Shown: positions 36,475-52,296, counted from the first letter of the stretch. The stretch is 64,000 bases of DNA from Bradyrhizobiaceae bacterium (GCA_036676315.1 JAKFDB010000067.1:2180-66179); one strand, 5' to 3'. Notes: generated from the sequence alone by a model not told the origin. Numbers and translations are program-made.

Positions 36475-36591
36475 ATGTTGCTCGCCCTCATCACCTCCTG
36501 GTTTCAGGCCAAGCCCGCCTTCGTCTGGAAGCCGGCGTTGACCCTGACCGACCCGCGCATCGTCTCCGAGCTGACCGCCTCGCTCAACTGA
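36475..36591 (+). CDS. Putative 38-aa small protein MLLALITSWFQAKPAFVWKPALTLTDPRIVSELTASLN
   Basis: Nearly all codons end in G/C like host genes; sits in an otherwise empty gap downstream of the palindrome. Confidence 0.6.
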   Translation: MLLALITSWFQAKPAFVWKPALTLTDPRIVSELTASLN

Positions 36592-36674
36592 GCCGGCCGC
36601 GGGCCCTGCGTCACATTCATCCGATTGCGCGTCTGCGCTTGACTGCGCCTGCCTGCTGAGGGCAAGCGCAAGGC

Positions 36675-37574
36675 GTGTTCACGCTTGCGCATCTGTCGGA
36701 CCCGCATCTCGGGCCGCTCGCCCGGTTCTCCCTGCGGGAGCTGATCGGCAAGCGCGCGACCGGCTATGTCAACTGGCGGCGGAAACGCCGCCATGCGCAT
36801 GACATGGAGATCCTCGGGCTGATCGTCGCCGATATCCTGGCGCAGAAGCCCGACCACATCGCCTGCACCGGCGACGTCTCCCATATCGGCCTGCCGAACG
36901 AGTTCAAGACGGCGCTGACCTTCCTCGACACGCTCGGCCCGCGCGAGAAGGTCTCGTTCGTCCCCGGCAATCACGACGCCTATGCCCGCTCCTCGCTGAA
37001 AGCGCTGGCCGGCGAACTCGGTCCCTGGTGCGCCAGCGACGACGGCGAGGCCGGCTACCCCTGGTATCGCCGGCGCGGCCCGGTCGCTCTGATCGGCATG
37101 AACACCGGCATCCCGACGCTGCCGCTGATGGCGACCGGCCGCATCGGCCCGGCGCAGATCGTCCTGGCGGAGCGAATGCTCGCGCAGGCCAAGGCCGACG
37201 GCCTGATCCGCGTCATCCTGATCCATCACCCGCCCTATGTCGGCGGTGCCCGGCGCACCCGTGAACTGCTCGACGCGCCGGCCTTCGAGGCGATGCTGGC
37301 GCGTGTCGGGGCCGACCTCGTCCTGCACGGCCATAATCACCGCTTCTCACTGGCCTGGCGGCCGGGCGCGGGCCGGGACGTGCCGATCGTCGGCGTGCCC
37401 TCGGCCTCGATCGGGCCGCGCGGCGGCCATGGCGAGCTCGCCTCCTGGCATCTGCTGCGGATCGAGGGGACGGCGGAGGCTCCGGCGATCACCCTCGAAC
37501 GGCGCTGCTTCGACCTCGACGGCACGGTGAAGCTGCAGCAGTCGATACCGCTGATCGGCGGCGGGATGGTCTAG
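36675..37574 (+). CDS. Calcineurin-like metallophosphoesterase
   Basis: LSDPH, TGD, VPGNHD, HHPP and LHGHNH motifs; GTG start. Confidence 0.92.
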   Translation: MFTLAHLSDPHLGPLARFSLRELIGKRATGYVNWRRKRRHAHDMEILGLIVADILAQKPDHIACTGDVSHIGLPNEFKTALTFLDTLGPREKVSFVPGNHDAYARSSLKALAGELGPWCASDDGEAGYPWYRRRGPVALIGMNTGIPTLPLMATGRIGPAQIVLAERMLAQAKADGLIRVILIHHPPYVGGARRTRELLDAPAFEAMLARVGADLVLHGHNHRFSLAWRPGAGRDVPIVGVPSASIGPRGGHGELASWHLLRIEGTAEAPAITLERRCFDLDGTVKLQQSIPLIGGGMV

Positions 37575-37585
37575 GAACCGGCGTC

Positions 37586-37681
37586 GTCATTCTCGGGCGA
37601 AGCGCAGCGCAGACCCGAGAATCCCATGACGAGAAGGTGCCTCTTCCGGCGCGAGATGCTCGGATCAAGTCCGAGCATGAC
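37586..37681. repeat. CGTC-tagged palindromic repeat, subfamily B
   Basis: GTCATTCTCGGGCGAAGCGCAGCGCAGACCCGAGAATC...GATGCTCGGATCAAGTCCGAGCATGAC; similar to 52807 and (reversed) 41034. Confidence 0.85.
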
Positions 37682-37694
37682 GCGTGTCTCGCCG

Positions 37695-38441
37695 TCAGAC
37701 GCAGCGGCCGCCGTCGACGGCGAGCACCGAGCCGGTCACCATCTCGGATTCATCCGAGCACAGGAACAGCGCTGCGTTGGCGATGTCCTGCGGCGTCGAG
37801 AAGCGGCCCCAGGGTATCGTCGCGGTGAAGGCCTTGCGCTTCTCCGGCGTGTCCTCGCCCATGAAGGTCGCGAGCAGCGGCGTCTCGCCGGCGACCGGGG
37901 CGATGGCGTTGACGCGGATCCGGTCAGGCGCGAGCTCGACGGCCATCGACTTGGAGAGCAGGTTCGCGGCGCCCTTCGAGCCATTGTACCAGGTCAGACC
38001 GGGCCGGGGGCGCACGCCCGCGGTCGAGCCGATATTGAGGATGACGCCGCCGCCATGCTCGCGGAAATGCGGCACCGTCGCCTTGGCCATCAGGTAGATC
38101 GACTTGACGTTGACGTCGAAGACGCGGTCGAATTCGGCCTCGCTGACGTCGAGCATCGGCTGGTTGCGATGGCTGATGCCGGCATTGTTGACGACGATGT
38201 CGAGCCGGCCGAAGCGGGCGATCACCTTCGCCACGGCGCTGTCGACGCTCTTGCCCTTGCCGACGTCGCAGGCGACCGCGAAGGCCTTGCGGCCGATCGC
38301 CTTAGCCGCTTCCTTCGCCTTGTCGCCGTTGATGTCGAGCACGGCGACGCGGGCGCCCTCGCGCACGAAGGTCTCGGCGATGCCGAAGCCGAACCCCTGC
38401 GCCGCGCCGGTAATCAGCGCGGTCTTGCCCTTCAGTCTCAT
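37695..38441 (-). CDS. SDR family oxidoreductase (FabG-like)
   Basis: TGAAQGFG, NNAG and YNGSK motifs. Confidence 0.92.
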   Translation of the reverse strand: MRLKGKTALITGAAQGFGFGIAETFVREGARVAVLDINGDKAKEAAKAIGRKAFAVACDVGKGKSVDSAVAKVIARFGRLDIVVNNAGISHRNQPMLDVSEAEFDRVFDVNVKSIYLMAKATVPHFREHGGGVILNIGSTAGVRPRPGLTWYNGSKGAANLLSKSMAVELAPDRIRVNAIAPVAGETPLLATFMGEDTPEKRKAFTATIPWGRFSTPQDIANAALFLCSDESEMVTGSVLAVDGGRCV

Positions 38442-38580
38442 GGTGTTTCCTCGGATGCTTTCTGCCGCGCGACTGTGGGGCGATTTGCCGGCCGGGATAA
38501 ATACGCTTTCGCGATTGGGCGGATAGCGAAAAGGTATGGGCCGATGGCGTTCTCGGGCGGAGCGCCGGATGAAGGGCGCG

Positions 38581-38720
38581 GGGAACCCTTCTCCCGTGTG
38601 GGAGAAGGGCAGGGATGAGGGCCTGCCCTATCCGCAGAAGGCACAGCGACCCTGCATCGCTTCAATAATCAGCGGCGGTCCCTCACCCCTGCCCCTCTCC
38701 CATCCGGGAGAGGGGTTCCC
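38581..38720. repeat. MITE-like CCCTCTCCC/GGGAGAGGG family repeat
   Basis: 15-bp near-perfect terminal inverted repeats GGGAACCCTTCTCCC / GGGAGAGGGGTTCCC, each end folding into its own hairpin. Confidence 0.75.
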
Positions 38721-38726
38721 CGCGCC

Positions 38727-40538
38727 TTACGCCCCGATTTCCTCGCGCAGCATCTCCAGCTCCAACCAGCGCTCCTCGGCCTCGGCGATCTCGCGCGTCA
38801 CCTCGTCCAGCCGGGCGGTCGCCTTGGCGAAGAGCTTCGGGTCGCGGGTGTAGAGATCGCCCGCCAGCGCGGCGTTGAGTTTGCCGGCCTCGGTCTGCAG
38901 CTTCCCGAGCTGCTGGGGCAGCGTCTTCAGAGCGTGCTGCTCGTTGAAGGAGAGCTTGCGCTTCGGGGCTGTCGCGCCTGCTGCGAGGGCGGCCTTCTGC
39001 GGCCCGGACGCAGCCGTCTTCACCGGGACGGCGCGCGCCTTGGCGCCGACGCCGCGGCCGCGCTGGGCCAGCATGTCGGAATAGCCGCCGGCGAACTCGG
39101 TCCAGACGCCGTCGCCGTCCGAGATCAGGGTCGAGGAGACGACGCGGTCGAGGAAGTCGCGGTCATGGCTGACCAGCAGCACGGTGCCGGCATAGTCGGC
39201 GAGCAGTTCCTGCAGCAGGTCGAGCGTTTCGATGTCGAGATCGTTGGTCGGCTCGTCGAGCACCAAGAGGTTGGAGGGCTTGGCGAGGGCGCGGGCCAGC
39301 ATCAGCCGGCCACGTTCGCCACCCGAGAGCGCGCCGACCGCGGTGCCGCGCTGGATCGGCTGGAACAGGAAGTCCTTCATGTAGCTGATGACATGGCGCG
39401 GCTGGCCGCCGACCATGATCTGGTCCGAGCCGCCGCCGGTCAGCGCGTCGCCGAGCGGCGTCGCCGGATCGAGGCTCTCGCGGCGCTGGTCGAGCGTCAC
39501 CATCTCGAGCGTGGCGCCGAGCTTGACCTTCCCTGAGTCGGGCTTGAGCGCGCCGGTGAGCAGGTTGATCAGTGTCGTCTTGCCGGCGCCGTTGGGACCG
39601 ACAATGCCGATGCAGTCGCCGCGGGCGACGCGCAATGAGAAGTCCTTGACCACCGGCCGACCGTCATAGGCCTTGGCGATGTCGACGGCCTCGATCACCA
39701 GCTTGCCGGAGGCCTGCGCCTCGCTCGCTTCGAGCCGGACGGAGCCGACGGCGTGGCGGGCGGTGCGGCGCTGCTCGCGCAGGCCATGCAGTTCGCCGAG
39801 CCGGCGCTGATTGCGGGTGCGCCGGGCGCTGACGCCGTAGCGCAGCCAATCCTCCTCGCGGGCGATCTTGCGGTCGAGCTTGTGGCGGTCGAGTTCCTCC
39901 TGCGCCAGCACCTCGTCGCGCCAGGCCTCGAACTCGCCGAAGCCGCGCTCGACGCGCCGGGTGACGCCGCGGTCGAGCCAGATCGTGGCGCGCGAGAGCG
40001 AGCTCAGGAAGCGGCGGTCATGGCTGATCAGCACCATGGCCGAGCGCAACGATTTCAGCTCCTGCTCGAGCCATTCGATCACGGGCAGGTCGAGATGGTT
40101 GGTCGGCTCGTCGAGCAGCAGGATGTCGGGCTCGGGCGCGAGCACGCGGGCGAGTGCGGCGCGGCGCGATTCGCCGCCCGACATGCTGGCCGGATCTTCC
40201 TCGCCGGTCAGGCCCAGTTCCTCGATCAGGTATTGCGCGCGATAGGCATCGTCGCCGGGTCCGAGCCCCGCCTCGACATAGGAAAGCGAGGTCTTGTAGC
40301 CGGAAAAGTCGGGCTCTTGCGGCAGATAGCGGATGGTCGCGCCCGGCTGGACGAACCGCTCGGCGCTGTCCGGCTCGACCAGCCCAGCCACGATCTTGAG
40401 CAGGGTCGACTTGCCGGAGCCGTTGCGGCCGACCAGGCAGACCCGCTCGCCGGCGGAAACCGCGATCTCGGCGCCCTCGAGCAGCGGATGGCCGCCGAAG
40501 GTGAGAGCAACGTCGCGGAGATGCAGCAGGGGGGCCAT
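38727..40538 (-). CDS. uup: ABC-F ATP-binding protein, Uup-like
   Basis: Two ABC domains (GRNGSGKST, GPNGAGKTT), LLDEPTNHLD and a C-terminal KRKLSFNEQ coiled coil; no TM segments. Confidence 0.85.
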   Translation of the reverse strand: MAPLLHLRDVALTFGGHPLLEGAEIAVSAGERVCLVGRNGSGKSTLLKIVAGLVEPDSAERFVQPGATIRYLPQEPDFSGYKTSLSYVEAGLGPGDDAYRAQYLIEELGLTGEEDPASMSGGESRRAALARVLAPEPDILLLDEPTNHLDLPVIEWLEQELKSLRSAMVLISHDRRFLSSLSRATIWLDRGVTRRVERGFGEFEAWRDEVLAQEELDRHKLDRKIAREEDWLRYGVSARRTRNQRRLGELHGLREQRRTARHAVGSVRLEASEAQASGKLVIEAVDIAKAYDGRPVVKDFSLRVARGDCIGIVGPNGAGKTTLINLLTGALKPDSGKVKLGATLEMVTLDQRRESLDPATPLGDALTGGGSDQIMVGGQPRHVISYMKDFLFQPIQRGTAVGALSGGERGRLMLARALAKPSNLLVLDEPTNDLDIETLDLLQELLADYAGTVLLVSHDRDFLDRVVSSTLISDGDGVWTEFAGGYSDMLAQRGRGVGAKARAVPVKTAASGPQKAALAAGATAPKRKLSFNEQHALKTLPQQLGKLQTEAGKLNAALAGDLYTRDPKLFAKATARLDEVTREIAEAEERWLELEMLREEIGA

Positions 40539-40659
40539 GGCGTTCCTTCGATGTCAGGCCGCCCGGATAGACCGCCCGGCCGCCACTGTCACGCCCGGCA
40601 CCGAATTTGCCTGTCCACCATAGGATACGAATCGTATCTTTTAGTGGATGAGAGGCCCT

Positions 40660-41016
40660 GTGAGACAGCCGAAGCTTCGCAAGCCCCGCCCGGCGAGGAT
40701 GGGCGACAATGGCGGCCCGCCGCTGGTGGAGAAGCCGCATGAACCGGAATGGGGCAAGGGCGAGATCGCCCGCTATTTCGAGTGGCGTACCGCGCATCGC
40801 AAGGCCTGGCGCAAGCCGAGCGGCATCGTGCTGCGGCGGATGGAGCGGGCCGAGGAACTCGGCCTGACCTATGAGGAATATACGCTGGAAATCATGGAGC
40901 GCGGCTATTTCCCGCAGCCCGAACATGTCGCGGCGATTGTGGCGAGACGGCCGGAGCGGCGGCGCGCCGGCGGCGTGGTCGGCCAATCGCTGAAGGGCAT
41001 GCGGCTGAAGGGGTAG
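40660..41016 (+). CDS. Small conserved-looking hypothetical protein (GDNGGPPL...GLTYEEY)
   Basis: GAGG RBS before the GTG at 40660; host-like codon usage. Confidence 0.7.
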   Translation: MRQPKLRKPRPARMGDNGGPPLVEKPHEPEWGKGEIARYFEWRTAHRKAWRKPSGIVLRRMERAEELGLTYEEYTLEIMERGYFPQPEHVAAIVARRPERRRAGGVVGQSLKGMRLKG

Positions 41017-41033
41017 CGGACGAGCACGGGGCC

Positions 41034-41144
41034 GTCATGCCCGGGCTTGACCCGGGCATCCCCGGGCAGAGATTCTCGGATCTGCGCGGAGTTTATCCTT
41101 GGGCCGACCGAAGGTCGGACCCGAGGGCTCCGCCCGAGAAGGAC
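41034..41144. repeat. Subfamily B repeat (reverse orientation) carrying a nested 39-nt hairpin insert
   Basis: GTCATGCCCGGGCTTGACCCGGGCATC...GCTCCGCCCGAGAAGGAC; extra segment at 41088-41126. Confidence 0.75.
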
Positions 41145-41159
41145 GCGGCGCTCAGGCTT

Positions 41160-42203
41160 TCACGCCCGCAGCAGGCGCCGCAGCGTCTTCGTCAGCGGCC
41201 GCTCGAACCAGCGGTACACGGCGAAGGCGGCAAGGATCGCGGCGGCCAGCGCCGCCACGACGAACAGTCCCGTCGCCCCGGGAGCGACGCGCAGGAAAAG
41301 CTCGCGCATGGCGCGCATCGCAAAGGGATGGATGAGATAGAGCGCATAGGAGGCGTCGCCGAGCCGGGCGAGCAGGCGCACCAGCGCCGAGGGCGCCGAC
41401 CGTCCCTTGCCGCAGGCGGCGGCGGTAACGAGGAGGAGCGCCGCCGGGCCGCGAAAGGCGAGGGATCCCCAGGGCGTCTCGGCCCAGGCATTGCCGACTG
41501 CCGCGACCAGCAGCGCCGTTCCGGCCGCGACCATCAGCCAGCGCAAACGGCCATCGAGGCGCAGGCCGCGGTTCCGTAGCAGGGCGACCGCCATGCCGCC
41601 GGCGAATTCGAGCACGATCGGCTGGCCCCAGAAGCCGAAAGGCAGCGGCAGGGGGCCGGCAGCCTCGGCGGCGACCAGCCCCGCCAGCGCCAGAGCCGTC
41701 GCCGGCACGACCAGCGCGCGCGGCAGCAGCAGCGCCGCCGCGAACAGGGCGTAGAACAGCATCTCATAGTTCAGCGTCCAGCCCAGCGAATAGACCGGCT
41801 GGAGGGCGCCGGCGGCGTTGGGAGCCGGCCAGAACAGGTAGGAGGCGGCGATCTGCCCGAATGTCGGGGCGGCCGAGTTGACCAGGGCCGGCGAGGCAGC
41901 GAGCACGAGCAGGAACAAGGTCGTCGCCGCCCAGTAGAGCGGCACGATCCGGGCGACGCGGCGGGCGAGGAAAAGGCGCGCGCCGTCGCGTTTGCCGAAC
42001 AGGCCGGCCGAGGCGTGGACCATGATGAAGCCGGAGATGACGAAGAACAGGTCGACGCCGGCGGTCCAGGGCAGCAGGTGCCAGGGCGAGAACTGCGCGC
42101 CGGCCCGCTCCGCCAGGAAGCCGGCATCCGACTGGACATGGTGCACGGCGACCATCAGCGCCGCGAGCGCGCGCAGGACCTGGATGCCGTAGAGCTGGGA
42201 CAA
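41160..42203 (-). CDS. Acyltransferase-3 (OafA-like) membrane O-acyltransferase; start uncertain (TTG 42203)
   Basis: IQVLRALAALMV, GVDLFFVISGF, GWTLNYEMLFY and LGDASYALYLIH. Confidence 0.88.
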   Translation of the reverse strand: MSQLYGIQVLRALAALMVAVHHVQSDAGFLAERAGAQFSPWHLLPWTAGVDLFFVISGFIMVHASAGLFGKRDGARLFLARRVARIVPLYWAATTLFLLVLAASPALVNSAAPTFGQIAASYLFWPAPNAAGALQPVYSLGWTLNYEMLFYALFAAALLLPRALVVPATALALAGLVAAEAAGPLPLPFGFWGQPIVLEFAGGMAVALLRNRGLRLDGRLRWLMVAAGTALLVAAVGNAWAETPWGSLAFRGPAALLLVTAAACGKGRSAPSALVRLLARLGDASYALYLIHPFAMRAMRELFLRVAPGATGLFVVAALAAAILAAFAVYRWFERPLTKTLRRLLRA

Positions 42204-42264
42204 GGCGGGCGCGGCTCGAAAGCGAGAAAGGGAGTGCTGCGGCGTCAGGCGAGCCGCAGCGGGT

Positions 42265-43269
42265 TCACGCAAACCACAACCGCGCGGGATCGTCGAGCCC
42301 GAAACGCGCCGGCGCGCTGGCGATCGCGGCGATACCCCGTTCGGCGGGGGCGTCGCAGGTGATGACATGCAGGGCGAAGCGGGCTGCGAGATCCTCGACC
42401 GGCGGCTTGCCGCTGAACACGGCGTGGATCGTCGCTTTGTCGGCGAGCGGCAGGATACGCGGCGCGATGCCGCCGGCAAGATAGACCCCGCCGGTCGCCT
42501 TGAAGGCGAGGGCGAGATCGCCGGCGACGCGCGCCAGCAAGCGCCAGAAGCAGATGACGGCCTTCAGCGCCGCCGGGTTGCCGTCGAGGGCGAGGGTGGT
42601 GACGTCGGCGGCGCTGACATCGGGCTCGGAGAGGCCGGATTCCTGCACTACGGCCCGGTGGAAGCGCACGAGCCCGTCGCCGCGCAGCAGCGCCTCGATC
42701 GTCACACGCGGCAGGCCTTCCGCCAGTGCTGGCCAGAGCCGTGTCTCGGCCGGGTCCTCCGGGCCGATGCCGATATGGCCGCATTCGGTCGGCACCAGCA
42801 CGCCGGCCTTGCCGCGCATCAACAGCGCTGCGGCGCCGAAGCCGGTGCCGGGCCCGAGCACCAGGCGCGGGCCGGTCGCCTCGGGCCGGCCCGGCACCAG
42901 GGTCGTGACGTCGCCCTCGCGCAGCACGGCGAGCGAAGCGGCCAGAGACTCGAAATCATTGACCAGCAGGCCCTGCTCGAACCCGAGCGCCTGCGCCAGC
43001 TGCGGCCCGTCGAAGTGCCAGTTTGCATTGGTCAGCTGGGCCGCGCGCCCGTCGAGCGGACCGGCGACCGCCAGGATCGCCGAGCGCGGCCTGTCGTGGA
43101 GCGTGGCGAGCACTGCTTCGAGTGCGGCTTCCGGGGTCGGATGGGCACCAGTACTGATGCGGGCGAGGGGCTCCGGCTCGGCGCCGTGCTTGGACAGCAG
43201 CGACAGACGACAGTTCGTGCCGCCGATGTCGGCGATCAGGACCGGGCAGGGGAAGAGCGGGGCGCTCAA
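42265..43269 (-). CDS. glk: Glucokinase (Glk family)
   Basis: DIGGTN, VNDF, GPGTGFG, TECGH and YLAGGI. Confidence 0.88.
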   Translation of the reverse strand: MSAPLFPCPVLIADIGGTNCRLSLLSKHGAEPEPLARISTGAHPTPEAALEAVLATLHDRPRSAILAVAGPLDGRAAQLTNANWHFDGPQLAQALGFEQGLLVNDFESLAASLAVLREGDVTTLVPGRPEATGPRLVLGPGTGFGAAALLMRGKAGVLVPTECGHIGIGPEDPAETRLWPALAEGLPRVTIEALLRGDGLVRFHRAVVQESGLSEPDVSAADVTTLALDGNPAALKAVICFWRLLARVAGDLALAFKATGGVYLAGGIAPRILPLADKATIHAVFSGKPPVEDLAARFALHVITCDAPAERGIAAIASAPARFGLDDPARLWFA

Positions 43270-44045
43270 GCCGGCGCCTTCCAGTCGGCAAACCAGCCCA
43301 GCCCTTCGAGCGTGCCGGCGCGCGGGCGGTACTCGCAGCCGACGAAGCCGGGATAGCCGAGCGAATCGAGCTGGGTGAACAGTCGCGGATAGTCCGGCCT
43401 GGTGCCGTCAGGCTCGTGCCGGCCCTCGGCATTGGCGATCTGGACATGGCCGACGAGCGGGTAGAGTGCCTCCAGGCGTGCGCCGACACCGCCGTGGATC
43501 AGCTCGCAGTGATACATGTCGAACTGCAGCTTGACGTTCGGCCGGCCGGATTCGCGGACATAGGCCGCTGCCTGGTCGAAGTCGTTGAGGAAATAGCCCG
43601 GCATGTCCTTGCCGTTGATCGGCTCGAGCAGGAGGTCGATGCCGTGCTCGCCGAGCTTGTCGGCGGCATAGGCGAGCGAGGCACGATAGGCCTCCTGCGC
43701 CGCGGGATCGTTCGGGTCGGCGTGGCCGGCCATCATGTGAAGGCGCTTGACCCCGGTCTCGTGGACATAGGCCAAGGCAGTCTCGATGCCCTTGCGGAAT
43801 TCGGCCTCGCGGCCGGGGATCGCGGCCATGCCGCGCTCGCCCTTGTCCCAGTCGCCCGGCGGCAGGTTGAACAGGGCCTGTTCGAGTTCGCCGCCGGCCA
43901 GGGCGAGACCGACCTTCTCCGCTGGGTGCTCATAGGGAAAGAGGAATTCGACGGCCTCGAAGCCGGCCTCGGACGCCGCCTTGAAGCGGTCGAGGAAGGC
44001 CCATTCGGTGAACATCATCGAAAGGTTGGCGGCGAAGCGAGGCAT
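43266..44045 (-). CDS. hyi: Hydroxypyruvate/2-oxo-tetronate isomerase family (Hyi/OtnI)
   Basis: MPRFAANLSMMFTE, LLEPIN, QFDMYH and GHVQIA...GRHEP. Confidence 0.85.
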   Translation of the reverse strand: MPRFAANLSMMFTEWAFLDRFKAASEAGFEAVEFLFPYEHPAEKVGLALAGGELEQALFNLPPGDWDKGERGMAAIPGREAEFRKGIETALAYVHETGVKRLHMMAGHADPNDPAAQEAYRASLAYAADKLGEHGIDLLLEPINGKDMPGYFLNDFDQAAAYVRESGRPNVKLQFDMYHCELIHGGVGARLEALYPLVGHVQIANAEGRHEPDGTRPDYPRLFTQLDSLGYPGFVGCEYRPRAGTLEGLGWFADWKAPA

Positions 44046-44110
44046 GGAATTCTCTTCAATCGATTCAGCCGGGGCAAGCTAGTCCGATCCGCCCGCCGCG
44101 TCATGCGGAT

Positions 44111-44135
44111 AACGCGACTGGCGGCACTCCGTTCC
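44111..44135 (-). promoter_or_regulatory. EcfG/sigmaT-type promoter upstream of hyi-glk-acyltransferase
   Basis: Minus strand GGAAC GGAGTGCCGCCAGTCG CGTT (N16), about 65 nt upstream of the ATG. Confidence 0.72.
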
Positions 44136-44185
44136 GGCATGCTGGGCAGGATGTCGGCTCAGCTGCGGCTCTGGCCCGGCGCCAT

Positions 44186-44938
44186 TCAGAAGCGGCCTGC
44201 GAGCTTCGGCAACGACGATGCGAGCAGAGCAAAGCCGGACAATGTCAGCAGCCCCAGCACGATCCTGCGGAAGGCCGCTTCGCTGATGCCGATGTAAAGC
44301 CGCGTACCCAGCAGCGTCGGGATCAGCATGGCCGGAGCGACGACGGCGAACATCGGCAGCATCTCGCGGGTGACCGTGCCGCTGGCGAGATAGGCCGCCA
44401 TGGTGACGGCGAGCGTCGCCAGGTTGAAGTTCTGGATGATGCTGCGCTGGGTATGCTTGTCGAGCCGGCGCAAGGTGCACCACAGCGTCGGGAACACGCC
44501 GGTAAAGCCGCCGAATCCGCCCATGATGCCGCCTGCGAGCCCGATCACGCCATCGGCCACGCGGCCGCCGAAGCGGATGGCCGGCAAATGCGGCGCGAGC
44601 AGCATGGTCGGGCACCAGATGACGAGCAGGCAGCCGAGCGCCGCCTTGAACAGGTTCGCATCGAGCAACGGCAGCAGCCCGACGCCGATCGGGATGCCGG
44701 CGAGGCCGCCGAGCAGGAAGGGCCAGAGCCGGGCGAAGTCGAAGCCGCGGCGAACCGAGAGGGCGGCGATGATCTGCCCGGTGAGGCTGCCGAAGACCGC
44801 CATGACGGCAGCGAGCTTGGGATCCAGCGTCCAGGCCCAGATCGTCATGGCGACCAGGCTGAAGGCGAAGCCGGAGAGACCCTGCACGAAACCAGCCACG
44901 ATCGCACCGAGGGCGAGGCTCAGGATCGTCACGTCCAT
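44186..44938 (-). CDS. TauE/SafE family exporter
   Basis: GFVQGLSGFAFSLV and GGIMGGFGGFTG; about 8 TM segments. Confidence 0.88.
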   Translation of the reverse strand: MDVTILSLALGAIVAGFVQGLSGFAFSLVAMTIWAWTLDPKLAAVMAVFGSLTGQIIAALSVRRGFDFARLWPFLLGGLAGIPIGVGLLPLLDANLFKAALGCLLVIWCPTMLLAPHLPAIRFGGRVADGVIGLAGGIMGGFGGFTGVFPTLWCTLRRLDKHTQRSIIQNFNLATLAVTMAAYLASGTVTREMLPMFAVVAPAMLIPTLLGTRLYIGISEAAFRRIVLGLLTLSGFALLASSLPKLAGRF

Positions 44939-45000
44939 GAAGAGGCCCCCGGTCCGCAATCTGACGCCTAGCCCATGCGCCTCGCTCTGAAAACTCGCTA

Positions 45001-45098
45001 TCGTCCCGGGCGACCGCAGGGAGACCCGGGACCCATGCCGGAACCGTTCAGGCATGGGTCCCGGATCGGCGCCGCTGACGCGGCTTGTCCGGGATGAC
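45001..45098. repeat. Mosaic GTC-tagged palindromic repeat
   Basis: Left half is the reverse complement of the subfamily A right arm; right half GGATCGGCGCCGCTGACGCGGCTTGTCCGGGATGAC is shared with 62868. Confidence 0.8.
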
Positions 45099-45124
45099 CT
45101 TCGAGGGAGTCGCTCGTGCGAAGG

Positions 45125-46117
45125 CTACTTCTTCGCTTCCGGCTTGGCCGGCGGGTTCGGGTCCTTCGAGAAGTTGCGGAAGACCATGTCGGGCGAGGAG
45201 GTGTTGTGGCGCGAATGGGTGGCGCGGCCCATCCAGACATCGGTCGCCTTGCCGCCGGTGAAGGGCATCAGGGGCTCCTCGCGCCAGCCCTTGGCGCCGG
45301 GCTCGCGGATGGCGATGCGGGCGACGTCGTTGTTGAATTCGGTGACATACATCGAGCGCAGCGCGGCGAAGGCCTTGCCGCCGGTGACCGGCTTGTCGAG
45401 CACCGCGTCGAGCACCATGCGGTTCTGGTCGACGCTGTCGAGCTTGAGCGTGCCGGCGGAGCCGTCCTTGAAGGCGAGGTTGAAGGAGAGCGTCTTCGGG
45501 TCGAAGGCGATCTCCCTGATGTTCACCACCGGCCGGGCGCCGTCCTGCTCGACCGGGCCGAACAGGAAGGAGGAGCCGTAAGCCGCGGCGGAGAGCTGCT
45601 GCGGCGGCAGCGGCCGGACGCGCCAGTAGCCGTCCTGCGGATAGACGACGAGCACCTCATAGGAGCCGGTCTTGCCGAGCTTCCAGAGTTGGACGAGGTG
45701 CAAGCCCTTCTCGACGCGGTCGCCGACCCGGAAGGTCGTCTCGGCCGGGCGCCAGAAGCTCTCGAAGGTGTAGCCGACCAGCCAGTACTCGATGCTCTCG
45801 TAGAAGGTGACCCGCTGCGGCGGCACGGGTGCCTTGAAGACCGGATCGCCGGTCATGTCGCAATCCGTCCAGTCGGCATCCCAGTTGTCGCGCAGGAGCC
45901 CGGCGATGTAGGCCGGATGCGCCGCCTCGATGCGGAAGCGCCGGACCTCCGGCGAGATCGCCTTGATGGTGACGTTGTCCTTTTCGGCACAAAGCACCGG
46001 CTCGGATTCGTTCTTGACCTCGACGGCGACATCGCTGGCAGCATGGGCCGGCAGGGCGAACAGAAGCGCCAGTGGAACGAGCAGTGGGCGCAGGCGCGCA
46101 GGAAGCGTCATCATCAT
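45125..46117 (-). CDS. Secreted/periplasmic hypothetical protein, beta-rich
   Basis: Sec signal ending AHA; starts 4 nt after the fkbM stop; host-like codons; no family recognised. Confidence 0.8.
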   Translation of the reverse strand: MMMTLPARLRPLLVPLALLFALPAHAASDVAVEVKNESEPVLCAEKDNVTIKAISPEVRRFRIEAAHPAYIAGLLRDNWDADWTDCDMTGDPVFKAPVPPQRVTFYESIEYWLVGYTFESFWRPAETTFRVGDRVEKGLHLVQLWKLGKTGSYEVLVVYPQDGYWRVRPLPPQQLSAAAYGSSFLFGPVEQDGARPVVNIREIAFDPKTLSFNLAFKDGSAGTLKLDSVDQNRMVLDAVLDKPVTGGKAFAALRSMYVTEFNNDVARIAIREPGAKGWREEPLMPFTGGKATDVWMGRATHSRHNTSSPDMVFRNFSKDPNPPAKPEAKK

Positions 46118-46121
46118 CGAA

Positions 46122-46880
46122 TCAACCTTGCAGGATGGCGTAGATATCGCCCGAATTGGCGGTGTGCGGCAGGTCGCGGATATAGCCGCCCATGACCTCG
46201 GTGCCGACCGCCTCCGGGAAGACCAGCTTCTGGCTTTCACCGAGCGCGACATTGAAACGGTAGGGACCGAGCGCCTCGACGAGAGCGAGGCAGGCCTCGG
46301 CGACGTCGCGCTGGATGGTGGTGAATTCGAAGGAGAGTGCTGGGACCGGCCGCGTCAGCCCGGCCAGCACATGCGCCTCGAAACCCTCGACATCGATCTT
46401 GACGAAGGCCGGCAGGCCGTACCGGCAGATCAGCGCATCGAGCGTGGTGCAGGGAACCGAGAGTTCACGGTCCCAGACCTGTTCGCGCCAGCCATCGGCA
46501 TTGCTGGCGGCGCCGACGAAATCCTGTGAAACGGTCGAGACCGTCGGGTTGGCGCTGTTGATCCGGAGCGCCACCGTGCCCGGCCGGTCGCCGCAGGCAG
46601 CCTCGACCAGGGTGACATCGGGGTCGCGGCCATGGATCAGCCGGATGGCGCGGGCCGGGCCCGGCTGCGGCTCGAGGGCGACGACGCGCGCGCCGAGCCG
46701 GCGGAAGGAGGAGATGCGATCGCCGACATGCGAGCCGATATCGAAGGCGAGGTCGCCGGGGCCGAGAAACCGGGCGTAGAGGGTATCCATCGCGGCGTTG
46801 CGGACCCGGTCGCCATGGTAGACGCGCAGCGAGCGCGACAGGCTTTTCGCCGTGCCCTTGGGATAGGCGACGGACTTCAT
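46122..46880 (-). CDS. FkbM family methyltransferase
   Basis: FDIGSHVG, VALEPQP and FVKIDVEGFE; ATG overlaps the opgH stop (ATGA). Confidence 0.9.
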   Translation of the reverse strand: MKSVAYPKGTAKSLSRSLRVYHGDRVRNAAMDTLYARFLGPGDLAFDIGSHVGDRISSFRRLGARVVALEPQPGPARAIRLIHGRDPDVTLVEAACGDRPGTVALRINSANPTVSTVSQDFVGAASNADGWREQVWDRELSVPCTTLDALICRYGLPAFVKIDVEGFEAHVLAGLTRPVPALSFEFTTIQRDVAEACLALVEALGPYRFNVALGESQKLVFPEAVGTEVMGGYIRDLPHTANSGDIYAILQG

Positions 46881-48709
46881 TTCGGCTCGCCCGCCAGAAT
46901 GGCGGTGAGCTCGGCCGGCGGATCGAAATCCTCCGGGATGCCGCAGAGGCCGCGGCGCGCGAACCAGCGGCCGAGCGCCGGCGAGGCGGTGAGCATGGCG
47001 AAGGGGATCGCCAGCACGTAGCCCGCGGTCAGCGGCAGCGACCAGAGCAGCACCGTCGGCGAAAGCAAGGCGAGCGCCCCGAAGATGTAGAGGCCGAAGA
47101 GCAGGTGCGGCCACAAGCCCGCGAAGGCGGTGGCGAAGGAGAGGGCGTGGGCATCGCGGGCCTGGCCGTTCCAGCCGATCCTCGCCTTGCCGAAGGCGAG
47201 GCCGACCATGAAGATCGTGGTCCGGAAGGTCGAGACCGCGCCCTGCAGGAAGGCGAAGACGATCTCGATCAGCGAGGAGGCGACGAAGCGGCCGGTCCCG
47301 CCATAGCGCTTGGTGCCGCCCTTGCTGAGCAGGATGTCGGCGAAGCCGGCGAGCTTCGGCGAGAGATACATCGCGAAGAACAGGACATAGAGAGTGGCGG
47401 CCAGGCCGGCCGGGTAATCGGCGAGGCCGCGATCCTCCCAGACCTTCACCGGCAGCAGCGCGATCATCAGCGTCCAGGCCGGCAGGCCGATGAACATCAG
47501 GATCGCCCAGGCGAGCTGGAAGCGGCTCATGAACTTGAGCCCCGGGATATCCATCAGCTTGAGATATTGCAGGTTGCCGAGGCACCAGCGCAGGTCGCGC
47601 CGGGCGAATTCGAGCATGGTCGGCGGGTTCTCCTCCCAGCTGCCCATCTCGACCGGCAGGACGCGCACTTCATAGCCGGCGCGGCGCATCAGGGTCGCCT
47701 CGACCTGGTCATGGCTCATGACATGGCCGCCGAGCGGCGGGCCACCCGGCAGGACCGGCAGATGGCACTCGTCGCGGAAGGGCGCGATCCGGACCATGGC
47801 GTTATGGCCCCAGAACGGGCCGCAATCGCCGATCCACCAGGCCGAGCCCATGGTGTAGGGCCGCATGCCGTGGCGCATGCCGAACTGGAAGATGCGCGCA
47901 AAGGCCGATTTGCTCGGCATGCCGACGACGAGGCTCTGCAGGATGCCGAGCTTCGGCCAGGCCTGCATCATCCGGGCGAGTTTCACGATCGCCGCGCCGG
48001 ACATGACGCTGTCGGCGTCGAGCGGCAGCATGACCTCGTAGCGCTCGCCCCAGCGTTCGCAGAAGTCGCGGACATTGCCGGCCTTGTAGCCGGTATTATC
48101 GGTGCGGCGGCGATAGGTCAGGCGCGAGGCGTCGCCGATCGTGGCGGCAAGGGAGGCGGCGAGCTTTTCCTCCGCCGCGGCGACTGCCGGGTCGTCAGTG
48201 TCGGAGAGCACGAAATAGTCGAACCACTCGCCTTCGCCGGTGGCATCGAGGCTCGCCTTGACGATCTCGAGGCGGCGGAAGGCGCGAGCCGGGTCCTCGT
48301 TGCGCAGCGTCATCAGGATTGCGGTGCGGATCGCGATCGGCGTCGGGGCATCGCCTGCGGCGGCGAAGGGCGCAACGCGGCGCTGCCCATCCTCGATGCC
48401 ATGCAGCAGCCAGAGGCCGATCACGGCGTTCCAGAAGCCGAGCACCGTCCAGGGCGCGCCGAACAGGAAGGCGATGAAGATCACGATGTCCGCCGCACTC
48501 CAGCCGCCGGCCGAGAGGACGCGCGAGAGGCCGTAGAGCAGGGCGGCGAGCGTCGCCAGGTTGAGGCCTGCGACCAGCAGCCGGCGCGCACGCAGCGTTC
48601 CTGTCGCCTGGAGGCCGGCCGGGGTCAGGCCCGGACCAAGCCGTTGCTCTTGCGCCGCCGCCTGGAACGTGGTCGGACCGGGACGCTGGTTCATGGCGGA
48701 CTCTGTCAT
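46877..48709 (-). CDS. opgH: Glucans biosynthesis glucosyltransferase OpgH/MdoH-like GT2 (short form; start 48709 or 48694)
   Basis: RNEDP, YFVLSDTDD, GYKAGNV, LDADS, FWGHNA, SHDQVEA and RRDLRWCLGNLQ. Confidence 0.88.
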   Translation of the reverse strand: MTESAMNQRPGPTTFQAAAQEQRLGPGLTPAGLQATGTLRARRLLVAGLNLATLAALLYGLSRVLSAGGWSAADIVIFIAFLFGAPWTVLGFWNAVIGLWLLHGIEDGQRRVAPFAAAGDAPTPIAIRTAILMTLRNEDPARAFRRLEIVKASLDATGEGEWFDYFVLSDTDDPAVAAAEEKLAASLAATIGDASRLTYRRRTDNTGYKAGNVRDFCERWGERYEVMLPLDADSVMSGAAIVKLARMMQAWPKLGILQSLVVGMPSKSAFARIFQFGMRHGMRPYTMGSAWWIGDCGPFWGHNAMVRIAPFRDECHLPVLPGGPPLGGHVMSHDQVEATLMRRAGYEVRVLPVEMGSWEENPPTMLEFARRDLRWCLGNLQYLKLMDIPGLKFMSRFQLAWAILMFIGLPAWTLMIALLPVKVWEDRGLADYPAGLAATLYVLFFAMYLSPKLAGFADILLSKGGTKRYGGTGRFVASSLIEIVFAFLQGAVSTFRTTIFMVGLAFGKARIGWNGQARDAHALSFATAFAGLWPHLLFGLYIFGALALLSPTVLLWSLPLTAGYVLAIPFAMLTASPALGRWFARRGLCGIPEDFDPPAELTAILAGEPK

Positions 48710-48755
48710 GCGATGGGCTGAGCGGAAGCTGGCAGGGAACGTCGCGGAGGTCGGA

Positions 48756-49754
48756 GTGATAGAACCGGCAAAGGCCGCCAAGGCAAGCGGCAAAGCGGCT
48801 GCAACAGCGCTCTGGTATGTCGCGCCGCGTGAATGCGCCCTGAACGACCTCGAGCTGCCGCAGCGCGGACCGCAGGACTGCCTTGTCCGCGCGCTGTGGA
48901 GCGGCATCAGCCGCGGTACGGAACGGCTGGTCTTCGAAGGGCGGGTTCCGGTTTCCGAGCATGACCGCATGCGCGCTCCGTTCCAGGAGGGCGCCTTCCC
49001 GTTCCCGGTCAAATACGGCTACTGCGCCGTCGGAACCGTCGAAGAAGGCCCTCCGGTGCTCGTCGGCGAGACCGCGTTCTGCCTCTATCCGCATCAGGAT
49101 CGCTTCGTCGTGCCGGCCGGCCGCGTCGTGGTGGTGCCGAAGGCGGTGCCGGCGCGGCGGGCCGTGCTCGCCGCCAACATGGAAACGGCGCTGAACGCGC
49201 ATTGGGACGCCGGCTCCGGCCCGGCCGACCGGACCGTCGTGGTCGGCGGCGGCGTGCTCGGCCTGCTCGTCGCCTATATCGGCGCGCGGTTGCCGGGCGC
49301 GCAGGTGACTTTGGTCGACATCGATCCGGGGCGCGCTGCGCTGGCGGCGGCGCTCGGCTTCGACTTCGCCTTGCCGCAGGACTGCCCCGGCGAAGCCGAT
49401 CTCGTTTTCCACGCCAGCGCCAGCGCGGCGGGCCTGTCGACCGCCATCGGCGCGGCCGGCTTCGAGGCCCGCATCGTCGAATTGAGCTGGTATGGCGAGG
49501 GCGTGGTCGCGGTTCCGCTCGGCGGCGCCTTCCATTCGAAGCGGTTGCAACTGGTCTCGTCACAGGTCGGGCAGGTCTCGCCGTCGCGCCGGCCGCGCTT
49601 CGACTATGCGCGCCGGACGCAGGCCGCGCTGTCGCTGCTGGCGGACGCCCGGCTCGATGCGCTGATCACCGACGAGATCGCCTTCACGGAAGCGCCGGAA
49701 CGGTTACCGGCGCTGTTCGCCGGCGCAGGGCTGACCGCGGTTCTGCGCTATTGA
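48756..49754 (+). CDS. MDR/zinc-binding alcohol dehydrogenase-like protein
   Basis: GGAGG RBS and GTG; SGISRGTE, PVKYGY, ANMETALN and VVGGGVLG. Confidence 0.85.
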   Translation: MIEPAKAAKASGKAAATALWYVAPRECALNDLELPQRGPQDCLVRALWSGISRGTERLVFEGRVPVSEHDRMRAPFQEGAFPFPVKYGYCAVGTVEEGPPVLVGETAFCLYPHQDRFVVPAGRVVVVPKAVPARRAVLAANMETALNAHWDAGSGPADRTVVVGGGVLGLLVAYIGARLPGAQVTLVDIDPGRAALAAALGFDFALPQDCPGEADLVFHASASAAGLSTAIGAAGFEARIVELSWYGEGVVAVPLGGAFHSKRLQLVSSQVGQVSPSRRPRFDYARRTQAALSLLADARLDALITDEIAFTEAPERLPALFAGAGLTAVLRY

Positions 49755-49774
49755 GTGCTCAAACTCATTGCCGG

Positions 49775-49879
49775 GTCATCCCGGCCGGAGCGCAGCGAAG
49801 AGCCGGGATCCATGCCTGAGCCTTGCCGATAAAGGTTCCGGCATGGGCCCCGGGTCTCCCTTCGGTCGCCCGGGACGAC
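49775..49879. repeat. Subfamily A palindromic repeat inside the dehydrogenase-PTPS operon gap
   Basis: Closely similar to 9949-10053. Confidence 0.85.
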
Positions 49880-49946
49880 TCGCGTCGGGGAGGGTAGGCA
49901 GAAGCGCGCGGCGGCCTTAAGCAGACTGTGCTGAAGGAGACCACGC

Positions 49947-50348
49947 ATGTTTTCCGTCGAAGTCCGCGACCGCATCATGATCGGCCACTCCCTGCCGGAC
50001 CCGTTCTTTGGCCCGGCGCAGGGGATGCATGGTGCGACCTTCATCGTCGATGTCGCCTTCTTCCGCGAACATCTGACGAAGCAGAACGTGGTGGTCGACA
50101 TCGGCGCCGCGCTCGATGTCCTCAACAAGACGCTGAAGCCGCTGAACTACCAGAATCTCGACGCGCTGCCGCAGTTCAAGGGCGTGCTGACGACCACGGA
50201 ATTCCTCTGCAAGCACATCTTCGACGCGATGTCGGCCGCGGCGAAATCGGGCGCGCTCGGCGCCGACGGCGCCGGCCTCGCCAAGATCCGCGTCACCCTG
50301 CACGAAACCGACCTCGCCCGCGCCAGCTATGAGGGCGCGCTCGCGTGA
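49947..50348 (+). CDS. 6-pyruvoyl-tetrahydropterin synthase-like (COG0720) protein, atypical subfamily
   Basis: T-fold pattern IGHSL...FFGPAQGMHGAT...NYQNLD...TTTEF; lacks CxxxHGH and ExxHGH. Confidence 0.85.
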   Translation: MFSVEVRDRIMIGHSLPDPFFGPAQGMHGATFIVDVAFFREHLTKQNVVVDIGAALDVLNKTLKPLNYQNLDALPQFKGVLTTTEFLCKHIFDAMSAAAKSGALGADGAGLAKIRVTLHETDLARASYEGALA

Positions 50349-51394
50349 GCGAGATCGCCTTCGCCATTCCCGGCGATCTGTCGCTGCCGACCGGCGGCTA
50401 TGCCTATGACCGGCGGCTGCTGGCGGAGTGGGCGCAGATGGGCGTGGCGGCGCATCATCTCGAGCTTCCGGGCAGCTTTCCCGCTCCGAGCGAGGCCGAT
50501 CTCGCCGAGACCGGCAGGGCGATCCTGTCGCAGCCCTATGACCGGGTGCTGCTGATCGATGGGCTTGCCTATGGCGCCTTCCCGGAGAGCATCGCGGCCG
50601 GGCTTGCCGGCCGTGTCGTCGCACTGGTGCACCATCCGCTCGGGCTCGAGGCGGGGCTTTCCCCGGAACGCGCGGCGGCCTTGCTGGCGAGGGAAGCCGC
50701 AGCGCTGCGCCATGCCAGTGCCGTCATCGTCACCAGCCCAGCCACAAAGCGTCTGCTCGTCAGCGATTTTTCCGTGCCGGAAACCCGCATCACCGTGGCC
50801 GAGCCGGGCGTTGATCCGGCGCCGCGCGCCACAGGCTCTGCCGCAGGCGCGCCGCTCCAGCTGCTCGCGGTGGGCTCGCTGGTGCCGCGCAAGGGCTATG
50901 ACGTGCTGGTCGAGGCGCTCGCCGGACTGGCCGAGCGGAACTGGCGGCTGACCATCATCGGCGCCGACCGGGCGCCGGCGACCGCGGCAGCGCTGGCGGC
51001 GCAGATCGCTGCAGCCAGTCTCGGCGATCATGTCCGGATTGCCGGTGCGGTCGACCAGGCGACGCTCGAGGCCGCCTATGCCGGCGCGGATCTCTTCGTC
51101 CTGCCCTCGCTGTTCGAGGGCTATGGCATGGTGCTGACGGAAGCGCTGGCGCGCGGCCTGCCGATCCTCTGCACCACCGGCGGTGCGGCGGCAGAGACGG
51201 CGCCCGATGCGGCAGCGCTGAAGGTTTCCCCCGGCGATGCCGAAGCGTTGCGCGCCGGGCTCGCCCGCCTCCTTGCCGATGGCGAGGAGCGCAAACGGCG
51301 TTCCGACGCCGCCTGGCATGCCGCCGGCGCATTGCCAGCTTGGCGGCAGACCGCGACAATCGTCGCCGAAACCTGTGCGAAGGTGTCACCATGA
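50345..51394 (+). CDS. Glycosyltransferase family 4
   Basis: TGGYAYDRR, VGSLVPRKGYD and PSLFEGYGMVLTEA; GTGA overlap with the PTPS-like gene. Confidence 0.9.
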   Translation: MSEIAFAIPGDLSLPTGGYAYDRRLLAEWAQMGVAAHHLELPGSFPAPSEADLAETGRAILSQPYDRVLLIDGLAYGAFPESIAAGLAGRVVALVHHPLGLEAGLSPERAAALLAREAAALRHASAVIVTSPATKRLLVSDFSVPETRITVAEPGVDPAPRATGSAAGAPLQLLAVGSLVPRKGYDVLVEALAGLAERNWRLTIIGADRAPATAAALAAQIAAASLGDHVRIAGAVDQATLEAAYAGADLFVLPSLFEGYGMVLTEALARGLPILCTTGGAAAETAPDAAALKVSPGDAEALRAGLARLLADGEERKRRSDAAWHAAGALPAWRQTATIVAETCAKVSP

Positions 51395-52230
51395 GTGGAT
51401 TTTCCCCGGACTGGCTCGCCTTGCGCGAGCCGGCCGACCATGCCGCCCGCAACCCGCAGGTGCTGGCCGCGGTCGGCGCCACCTTCTCCAGCCGGCAATC
51501 GCTGACGATCGTCGATCTCGGCTGCGGCGCCGGCTCGAATCTGCGCGGCACCTACTCGGTGCTGCCGGCGCGTCAGTACTGGACGCTGGTCGATTTCGAT
51601 GCGCGCCTGCTTGCGGTGGCTCGCGAGCGCCTCACCGATTGGGCCGACGAGGCGGAAGGGCTGGGTGAGGAGCTCGTGCTGCGCAAGGGCGAGAAGTCGC
51701 TGACGGTCGATTTCCGCCGCGCCGACCTCAATACCGATCTCGAATGGGTGCTGGGCTGGCAGCCCGACCTTGTCACCGCCGCCGCGCTGTTCGACCTGAC
51801 TTCGGTGCGCTGGCTGGAGCGCTTCGTCGCCTCGCTGGCGAGCCAGCGGCTGCCGCTCTACACGGCGCTGACCTATGACGGGCGGGAGAGCTGGGAGCCG
51901 GCCCATCCGGCCGATGCCAGGATGCTCGTCGCCTTCAACCACCACCAGCACAGCGACAAGGGTTTTGGTCCCGCCGCCGGACCGGAGGCGACCGAGACGC
52001 TGGCGCAGGCCTTCCGCAAGTCGGGCTGCGCCGTTACCGTCGGCGAAAGTCCCTGGCTGCTCGACGCGGGGAGCGCGACGCTGACGCGCGAACTGGCCGC
52101 CGGCATCGCCGCGGCGGTCGCCGAGACCGGACATGTCGAGCCGGAGACGATCGAAAGCTGGCTTGCGGCCAAGCGCGAGGCGGTTTCCGGCCGCATCGGC
52201 CATCAGGACCTATGGGCACGCCCGGTCTGA
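51391..52230 (+). CDS. Class I SAM-dependent methyltransferase-like protein
   Basis: DWLALREPAD, VDLGCGAGSN and ALFDL; start overlaps the GT4 stop (ATGA). Confidence 0.82.
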   Translation: MSGFSPDWLALREPADHAARNPQVLAAVGATFSSRQSLTIVDLGCGAGSNLRGTYSVLPARQYWTLVDFDARLLAVARERLTDWADEAEGLGEELVLRKGEKSLTVDFRRADLNTDLEWVLGWQPDLVTAAALFDLTSVRWLERFVASLASQRLPLYTALTYDGRESWEPAHPADARMLVAFNHHQHSDKGFGPAAGPEATETLAQAFRKSGCAVTVGESPWLLDAGSATLTRELAAGIAAAVAETGHVEPETIESWLAAKREAVSGRIGHQDLWARPV

Positions 52231-52296
52231 CGCCACGGCGACCTGCATCGCCGCCAATTGCCATTTCCGACAAATTCCGCCATCCCGCTCGCGACC

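Follow-up and report, generated by a model that had tools for sequence, protein, structure and literature searches.

What do four adjacent genes make, when one of them encodes a relative of 6-pyruvoyl tetrahydropterin synthase (PTPS) that has lost the catalytic residues of the known enzymes? The question is raised by an operon at positions 48756-52230 of a 64,000-nucleotide stretch from a Bradyrhizobiaceae bacterium (GCA_036676315.1, JAKFDB010000067.1:2180-66179; hereafter "the window"), a high-GC contig whose best protein matches are Bosea-named. A first-pass annotation of the window described the operon as a dehydrogenase, a PTPS-like protein, a GT4 glycosyltransferase and a methyltransferase, and proposed that it makes a glycosylated, methylated heterocycle derived from GTP, by analogy with cyanobacterial pteridine glycosides such as cyanopterin. 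Judging from the sequences, the four genes would be the tailoring core of a widespread pathway of the PTPS-IV (SCO6650) type, and we see an even chance that the whole chain leads to a glycoside of the cell envelope. The precursor is probably supplied by GTP cyclohydrolase II (GCH II), the gene of which lies in the window, at a distance from the operon.

The operon is almost certainly real and belongs to a PTPS-IV cluster. As described earlier, four open reading frames run in the same direction on the + strand and the last three overlap: the PTPS stop and the GT4 start share the nucleotides GTGA, and the GT4 stop and the methyltransferase start share ATGA. The GC content at third codon positions (0.80-0.89) is host-like. 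The dehydrogenase and PTPS genes are 192 nt apart, as opposed to a median spacing of about 44 nt in the sister loci. A blastn search with this spacer gave 109 matches, spread over many of the genome's contigs and clustered at spacer positions 20-125; since copies of this repeat occur genome-wide and the sister loci have short spacers, we consider the 192 nt an insertion and not an operon boundary. The only sites found in a scan of the operon for sigma-70 promoters and terminators were a weak promoter-like one inside the GT4 gene and a terminator-like one in the gene that follows.

The PTPS-like protein matches the Pfam PTPS family (PF01242; 69.8 bits vs. a cut-off of 22.4, E = 2.6e-19) and scores far below the cut-off of the NCBIfam QueD model (TIGR03367; 29.2 vs. 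89.25 bits). Its closest solved relative is SCO6650 of Streptomyces coelicolor (3D7J; E = 7.4e-38 over residues 1-132), a full-length alignment in which the motif FGPAQxxHGAT is common to both proteins. The first-pass annotation had noticed an altered motif in place of CxxxHGH or ExxHGH, and had placed the protein in an F-G-x-A-type subfamily, PTPS-IV. Both statements were borne out. Residues 20-31 read FFGPAQGMHGAT, the published PTPS-IV signature, in which F21-G22-P23-A24-Q25 is followed by HGA where HGH would be expected, and none of the motifs CxxxHGH, ExxHGH and CxxxxxHGH occurs in the protein. The FGPAQ motif, named as typical of PTPS-IV (PMC5445326), is kept across 31 diverse homologues.

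It is instructive to compare the protein with the classical members of its superfamily, PTPS-II and QueD (PTPS-I). Common to all are the T-fold, the Pfam domain, two of the three zinc-binding histidine positions (H14 and H28), and the residues TTTE85 and Glu120. TTTE and Glu hold the pterin ring in true PTPS enzymes. The differences concern catalysis. In an alignment to rat PTPS (1b66), His28 corresponds to the retained H48, whereas the third zinc histidine is replaced (H50 to Ala30), the Asp88-His89 pair has become N67-Y68, and the catalytic cysteine (Cys42 in rat) is missing, there being no cysteine at all upstream of the HG motif. With residue roles transferred from PTPS and QueD through this alignment, the protein fits neither the PTPS (EC 4.2.3.12) nor the QueD functional class. 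The crystal structure of SCO6650 dates from 2008, and the paper describing it is said to have found neither zinc nor PTPS activity. Databases label the gene "6-carboxytetrahydropterin synthase" or "6-pyruvoyl tetrahydropterin synthase"; as the active site contradicts both names, this annotation is systematically wrong. The label concerns a large family, with more than 8000 near relatives of PTPS-IV/SCO6650 among the matches listed and 489 clusters at 50% identity that score E<=1e-10. In one 1037-residue protein (P0268) the PTPS domain is fused to a HAD phosphatase, a methyltransferase and a dehydrogenase in a single chain, which links three of the four core genes functionally and implies a phosphorylated intermediate. 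Other architectures are found in five proteins of the representative library (P0159, P0160, P0178, P0184 and P0192; 375-855 aa), which contain three or four tandem PTPS-IV domains per chain.

The proteins of the window were mapped onto 80 named loci, each encoding a relative of the PTPS protein with 57-92% identity to it. The loci come from Hyphomicrobiales, Rhodobacterales, Caulobacteraceae, Acetobacteraceae, Elstera, two Burkholderiales-type betaproteobacteria and one Xanthomonas. Being those nearest to an alphaproteobacterial query, they do not yield independent counts; the numbers below (given over the loci with enough flanking sequence) describe a pattern, not a statistical test. The core order dehydrogenase-PTPS-GT4-methyltransferase is nearly constant, with the dehydrogenase directly upstream of PTPS in 66 of 73 loci, GT4 present in 68 of 71 and the methyltransferase in 63 of 68; this recurrence is far beyond chance. 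The region after the methyltransferase is also recurrent: a cytochrome b561 gene follows directly in 38 of 64 loci (in L109 and L110 it is co-oriented with or overlaps the dehydrogenase gene), and a protein consisting of the RibD_C reductase domain only comes after the methyltransferase in 39 of 61. The earlier statement that PTPS-IV travels with ribA and ribD paralogs, a dehydrogenase and glycosyltransferases thus agrees with the GCH II and RibD-type reductases of these loci.

The same arrangement is found well outside the Proteobacteria. A Streptomyces locus, the PTPS protein of which is 98% identical to SCO6650, consists of a CDP-alcohol phosphatidyltransferase gene divergent from a dehydrogenase, PTPS, GT4 and methyltransferase series, followed by LPG_synthase_TM and GCH II. 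This neighbourhood, which in S. coelicolor extends to the GCH II paralogue SCO6655, shares with the Bosea locus the order of the four core genes, the ATGA coupling of GT4 to the methyltransferase, a divergent membrane enzyme upstream and a GCH II downstream. The two differ in the membrane enzymes: Streptomyces has CDP-alcohol phosphatidyltransferase and LPG_synthase_TM, and Bosea a paralogue of OpgH, the synthase of periplasmic glucans, together with an FkbM methyltransferase and a secreted protein. They also differ in the cyclohydrolase, which is short and has Met where RibA has Tyr in Streptomyces, while it is a two-domain protein of the Tyr type here. Spoonamore et al. are said to have reported in 2006 that the Tyr-to-Met change makes SCO6655 a formamidopyrimidine-forming enzyme.

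The first-pass annotation saw no ribA beside the operon, and the reason is an inversion. In Bosea thiooxidans (L025) an orthologue 80% identical to the GCH II of the window lies about 0.8 kb after the methyltransferase gene, and both there and in L052 the genes for cytochrome b561, GCH II and a membrane protein of GT-C type come directly after the methyltransferase. The order in L052 is GNAT / NUDIX through OpgH, dehydrogenase through methyltransferase / cytochrome b561, GCH II, GT-C, and a single inversion of 35818-52230 turns it into that of the window. Compared to L025 and L052 the inverted segment spans 16.4 kb, with junctions at 35815-35817 and 52231-52257; no repeats were found within either junction region, each searched on its own. 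The inversion has carried the tail of cytochrome b561, GCH II and GT-C genes 15 kb away from the operon, and it accounts for the GNAT gene that comes after the methyltransferase here but not elsewhere. Four other Bosea loci (L022-L024 and L027) have the same inverted arrangement. The operon, the opgH gene without opgG, and the ribA and GT-C genes of the window are thus one system split by a single inversion.

The catalytic half of the displaced GCH II has retained the zinc cysteine triad and the tyrosine, as seen when its segments HSACLTGD...CDCG and NKMRAYKLQ are aligned with a hand-typed reference sequence of E. coli RibA. The N-terminal half has no Pfam match. This tyrosine determines that the normal diaminopyrimidinone is formed, and 29 of the 30 cluster copies have it. 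Full-length two-domain GCH II was found in 30 genomes of a sample of the order, 25 of which carry PTPS-IV, compared with 41 of all 151. The GT-C-like gene lies 22 nt downstream of GCH II in the window, and such a gene follows GCH II in 14 of 51 loci, all of them alphaproteobacterial. The dedicated RibD_C reductase is absent from this genome's cluster and from all Bosea loci; the three RibD_C matches of the genome are on other contigs. By gene content, Bosea has lost the dedicated reductase, in agreement with the earlier statement that the window holds no ribD-like gene and no CDP-alcohol transferase gene. AGeNNT reports a different cyclohydrolase, FolE2 (GCYH-IB), near PTPS-IV genes. We dropped this link, as FolE2 (PF02649) has no match anywhere in the genome and the cyclohydrolase that recurs in these loci is of type II.

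These results bear on the analogy that the first-pass annotation had drawn. A classical pterin glycoside would be made from GTP by cyclohydrolase I, which gives dihydroneopterin triphosphate, and then by the PTPS-like protein, GT4 and the methyltransferase, the product being a soluble pigment or cofactor like cyanopterin or biopterin glucoside. The PTPS fold with its ring-binding Glu and TTTE would suit this scheme, as would the two FolE copies of the genome, and cyanopterin does contain a methylated sugar. The resemblance is nonetheless one of concept only, namely a GTP-derived heterocycle with a sugar that may be methylated. The cyanobacterial glycosides start from cyclohydrolase I and an active PTPS, whereas here the catalytic Cys, the Asp-His pair and the third zinc His are gone, the cyclohydrolase travelling with the cluster is of type II and is accompanied by a RibD_C reductase, and no gene of the sepiapterin-reductase type is present. 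The tight coupling to OpgH-like or lipid enzymes, described below, is also unlike a soluble pigment. We therefore regard a classical pterin glycoside as unlikely and the cyanopterin analogy as weak. The more general part of the earlier proposal stands: a glycosylated, methylated, GTP-derived product is still the most economical reading.

The unit as originally drawn was too small not only at its displaced tail. Divergent from the dehydrogenase lies a gene for a paralogue of OpgH, named OpgH-P here, followed by genes for an FkbM-family methyltransferase and a secreted protein (Table 1). The start of fkbM overlaps the OpgH-P stop (ATGA), and 4 nt separate fkbM from the secreted-protein gene. An OpgH-like gene is divergent from the dehydrogenase in 56 of 66 loci, and the secreted protein occurs in 25 of 61. 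OpgH-P passes the NCBIfam MdoH model (NF003963; 918 bits vs. a cut-off of 884). Unlike the OpgGH system, it is coupled to FkbM and to a protein without a recognised fold, and there is no adjacent OpgG: the four OpgG/D genes of the genome are all on contigs other than that of OpgH-P. The canonical opgGH pair is on contig C20 and its OpgH is about 34-36% identical to OpgH-P, which is a dedicated paralogue, separate from the canonical enzyme of the genome. It forms a score class of its own: across the 151 genomes of the order OpgH scores are bimodal, with 33 genomes reaching 510 bits or more and none of the others exceeding 340. PTPS-IV is carried by 31 of the 33 high-scoring genomes, compared to the baseline of 41 in 151, and the two genes are neighbours in the cases listed. 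Among the exceptions is a 69%-complete genome in which the OpgH-P gene sits on a 2.3-kb contig.

Table 1. Genes and sequence elements of the PTPS-IV system in the window (positions counted from the first nucleotide of the 64,000).
Feature	Position	Strand	Remarks
BchC-like dehydrogenase of the medium-chain dehydrogenase/reductase (MDR) fold	48756(GTG)-49754	+	332 aa; weak Pfam ADH_zinc_N, NCBIfam bchC
Dispersed REP/MITE-like repeat	49774-49880	none	about 106 bp; blastn of the 192-nt spacer
PTPS-IV protein	49947-50348	+	133 aa, T-fold, SCO6650-like; Pfam PTPS 2.6e-19
GT4 retaining glycosyltransferase	50345-51394	+	349 aa; Pfam Glycos_transf_1 5e-31
Class I S-adenosylmethionine (SAM) methyltransferase	51391(ATG)-52230	+	279 aa; weak Pfam Methyltransf_25/12
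OpgH-P, paralogue of periplasmic-glucan synthase OpgH	46877-48709	-	610 aa; divergent from dehydrogenase
FkbM-family methyltransferase	46122-46880	-	Pfam Methyltransf_21; TIGR01444 6.7e-21
Secreted protein without known family	45125-46117	-	330 aa; signal peptide ...ALPAHA/AS; all-beta
Cytochrome b561	35230-35814	+	Pfam Ni_hydr_CYTB 2.5e-27; cluster member displaced by inversion
EcfG-type promoter-like motif GGAAC-N16-CGTT	35061-35085	-	about 100 nt upstream of GCH II
Two-domain GTP cyclohydrolase II	33832-34959	-	375 aa; Pfam GTP_cyclohydro2 4.9e-46, residues 184-335 only
Large membrane protein, weak GT-C/PMT_2 signal	31398-33809	-	803 aa; Pfam PMT_2 1.5e-4, under cut-off

In the loci where OpgH is missing its divergent place is taken by a CDP-alcohol phosphatidyltransferase, and several of these loci (L092, L098, L107, L109, L110 and also the Xanthomonas locus L095) add a sulfatase-family membrane protein and FkbM. 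The two membrane enzymes were never found together in the loci examined, while FkbM occurs with either of them (27 of 64 loci). There seem to be two alternative output modules, and the second of them can be compared to the OpgB-type substitution of periplasmic glucans (OPGs): a CDP-alcohol transferase with a sulfatase-family protein would correspond to a phospholipid being made and its head group being transferred, a parallel that depends on a presumed match to OpgB. Together with the membership of the displaced tail, the OpgH-P, FkbM and secreted proteins indicate a product destined for the envelope and not a soluble pterin or flavin.

An alternative is that the product is a soluble GTP-derived glycoside, cytoplasmic or secreted, that serves as an antioxidant, signal or cofactor, with OpgH, cytochrome b561 and the lipid enzymes merely co-regulated. 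This would be the natural interpretation of L108 and L111, where the core has no output module nearby, and of the trimmed PTPS-GT4-methyltransferase copies in L026, L034 and L072. It does not sit well with the near confinement of OpgH-P to PTPS-IV genomes, in which it adjoins the operon, nor with the occurrence, in different phyla, of two distinct membrane output modules in that one divergent place, and we consider it unlikely. One could also argue in the opposite direction, that the system decorates periplasmic glucans without any GTP-derived unit, the core acting on a sugar or polyol and ribA being near through inherited gene order. The tight coupling of OpgH-P, FkbM and the secreted protein is as expected in that case, and the GCH II of the window does resemble a housekeeping enzyme. 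Yet the core is found together with GCH II and RibD_C in Streptomyces, Xanthomonas and betaproteobacteria, the gene order of which is otherwise unrelated, the Streptomyces cluster has a specialised, Met-type GCH II, and the ring-anchoring residues of the T-fold are retained; a glucan decoration of this kind seems quite unlikely to us.

The other three core proteins have the following features. The dehydrogenase matches Pfam ADH_zinc_N (2.3e-5) and NCBIfam bchC (1.3e-14), both under cut-off; it carries a GGGxxG-...-VTLVD nucleotide fold of the NAD type, and the usual zinc-ligand cysteine is replaced (SGISRGTE). Across 15 homologues the mean column identity is 60%, with SRGTE, PFPVKYGY and PHQ invariant. 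GT4 scores 107.9 bits with Glycos_transf_1 and has the E-x7-E motif (FEGYGMVLTE); its nearest solved relatives, sucrose-phosphate synthase Tll1590, MshA and PimB, act on small polyol or sugar-phosphate acceptors. The methyltransferase, modelled by AlphaFold2 (AF2) with a pLDDT of 96.7, has an invariant DxGxGxG, and the nearest folds are small-molecule methyltransferases (3mgg, RebM, trans-aconitate methyltransferase and AtmM), among which RebM and AtmM are glycoside O-methyltransferases.

Based on these assignments a pathway can be sketched. Firstly, GCH II would open GTP to 2,5-diamino-6-ribosylamino-4(3H)-pyrimidinone 5'-phosphate. Secondly, the dedicated RibD_C reductase would convert this to the ribityl form in most lineages, while Bosea may rely on the housekeeping RibD or skip the step. 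The pairing of GCH II with RibD_C would thus give a 2,5-diamino-ribitylamino-pyrimidinone with a pterin-like 2-amino group, and this ribityl form would keep the 2-amino-4-oxo face that is bound by T-fold proteins. In the third step the BchC-like dehydrogenase would oxidise or reduce a side-chain carbon, and the metal-poor T-fold of PTPS-IV would grip the 2-amino-4-oxo-pyrimidine ring with Glu and TTTE and remodel or cyclise the side chain. We speculate that C2' might be oxidised and the ring then closed onto the 5-amino group, to give a dihydropterin. By analogy with MshA and sucrose-phosphate synthase, which act on polyol or sugar phosphates, GT4 might then attach a hexose to one of the side-chain hydroxyls, and the methyltransferase would methylate the glycoside. 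Finally, here and in most relatives, OpgH-P, FkbM and the secreted beta-protein might turn the glycoside into a conjugate or primer of a periplasmic glucan, while other lineages might make it the head group of a phospholipid by means of a CDP-alcohol phosphatidyltransferase, accompanied by either an MprF-like flippase domain or a sulfatase-family transferase. The conservation of cytochrome b561 hints at a heterocycle that is redox-active at the periplasmic face. Taken to its end, this would define a new class of envelope-tethered, redox-active glycosides of a GCH II-derived heterocycle, of pterin or diaminopyrimidine type, used as glucan primer or cap (as here) or as lipid head group (Streptomyces, Xanthomonas and others) and with b561 as redox keeper; in this full form the proposal is tentative, and we hold it to be less likely than not.

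The first steps of the proposed pathway are shared with riboflavin and F420 synthesis in archaea and fungi, where GCH II or III is followed by a RibD_C-type reduction before deamination; the pairing of GCH II with a reductase-only RibD_C in most PTPS-IV lineages is the same. One may ask whether PTPS-IV simply belongs to riboflavin or F420 synthesis, and a review indeed assigns it to F420 synthesis on unpublished work (PMC5041015). The later steps are different, with dehydrogenase, T-fold protein, GT4 and methyltransferase in place of deaminase, lumazine synthase and Fo synthase, and in the Bosea cluster the dedicated reductase is missing as well. Neither cofactor requires a glycosyltransferase, a methyltransferase or envelope enzymes. 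Moreover, an Rfam search of the 64-kb window found no family, including the FMN (flavin mononucleotide) riboswitch, and CofD was not found in the genome, which is 99.97% complete. We rejected the F420 link on account of the missing CofD, and consider a role in either cofactor pathway highly improbable.

There are several observations that weigh against the envelope pathway, in addition to the dependence among the loci that was mentioned with the counts. A two-domain GCH II is near PTPS in only 23 of 59 loci, 10 of the 41 PTPS-IV genomes of the order have no OpgH-P, and L108 and L111 have neither output module. The GCH II of the window is, apparently, the only intact classical one of the genome, and for this reason its link to the cluster could be a matter of mere supply or of inherited synteny; it may serve riboflavin synthesis as well. 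A soluble glycoside would, moreover, need some route to OpgH before it could prime the enzyme.

The PTPS-IV subfamily and parts of its neighbourhood are already in the literature (PMC5041015, PMC5445326). The literature searched for SCO6650, SCO6651/52/54/55 and the pairings of the cluster enzymes contained no product or phenotype of a PTPS-IV cluster, in line with the earlier statement that the subfamily has no known product. Specific to this analysis are the form coupled to OpgH-P, the finding that it and the lipid module exclude one another, and the inversion by which the present copy is split. If the envelope pathway is true, many soil and water bacteria would divert an intermediate of the riboflavin pathway into a cell-surface molecule, which would open a new branch of GTP metabolism and represent a novel way of decorating glucans or lipids.

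A few further points concern single members of the system. The secreted protein has no match in Pfam or NCBIfam. Its 15 homologues share 61% column identity, with Cys43 and Cys86 invariant, and its AF2 model, of moderate quality (pLDDT 77), found no PDB match at E<=0.001 with Foldseek (TM score about 0.15), so the modelled fold may be new. As to OpgH-P, one clear exception to its usual company is L112 (G113:C10:335000-354999), a complete genome with an OpgH-P-type gene, no PTPS-IV match and no core genes nearby. The lone, essential OpgH of C. crescentus (PMC11389396) was considered as a candidate of the OpgH-P type and dropped: PTPS-IV occurs in 2 of 61 sampled genomes of that family, and the one Caulobacteraceae genome in which the cluster was seen has a canonical OpgH besides.

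The EcfG-type pattern upstream of GCH II has 3 matches in the window vs. 0.87 expected by chance. It is found at the same distance in L025 and L030, the other Bosea loci with GCH II, and in none of 25 non-Bosea GCH II loci; no such motif precedes the operon or opgH in the window. Two other GCH II-like sequences are present in the genome, namely a RibB fusion whose GCH II half is without the zinc cysteines (C8:3693-4127) and a distant, 452-aa paralogue in which the cysteines are kept (C113:28381-28833). Lastly, the PTPS-IV gene is the only COG0720 member of the genome (one PF01242 match) and no canonical QueD was found there, and queuosine precursor synthesis may be incomplete or dependent on salvage. 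Elsewhere in the same genome (C34:31164-32445) a QueC gene is followed by a gene for a membrane protein that resembles a YhhQ-type precursor transporter.

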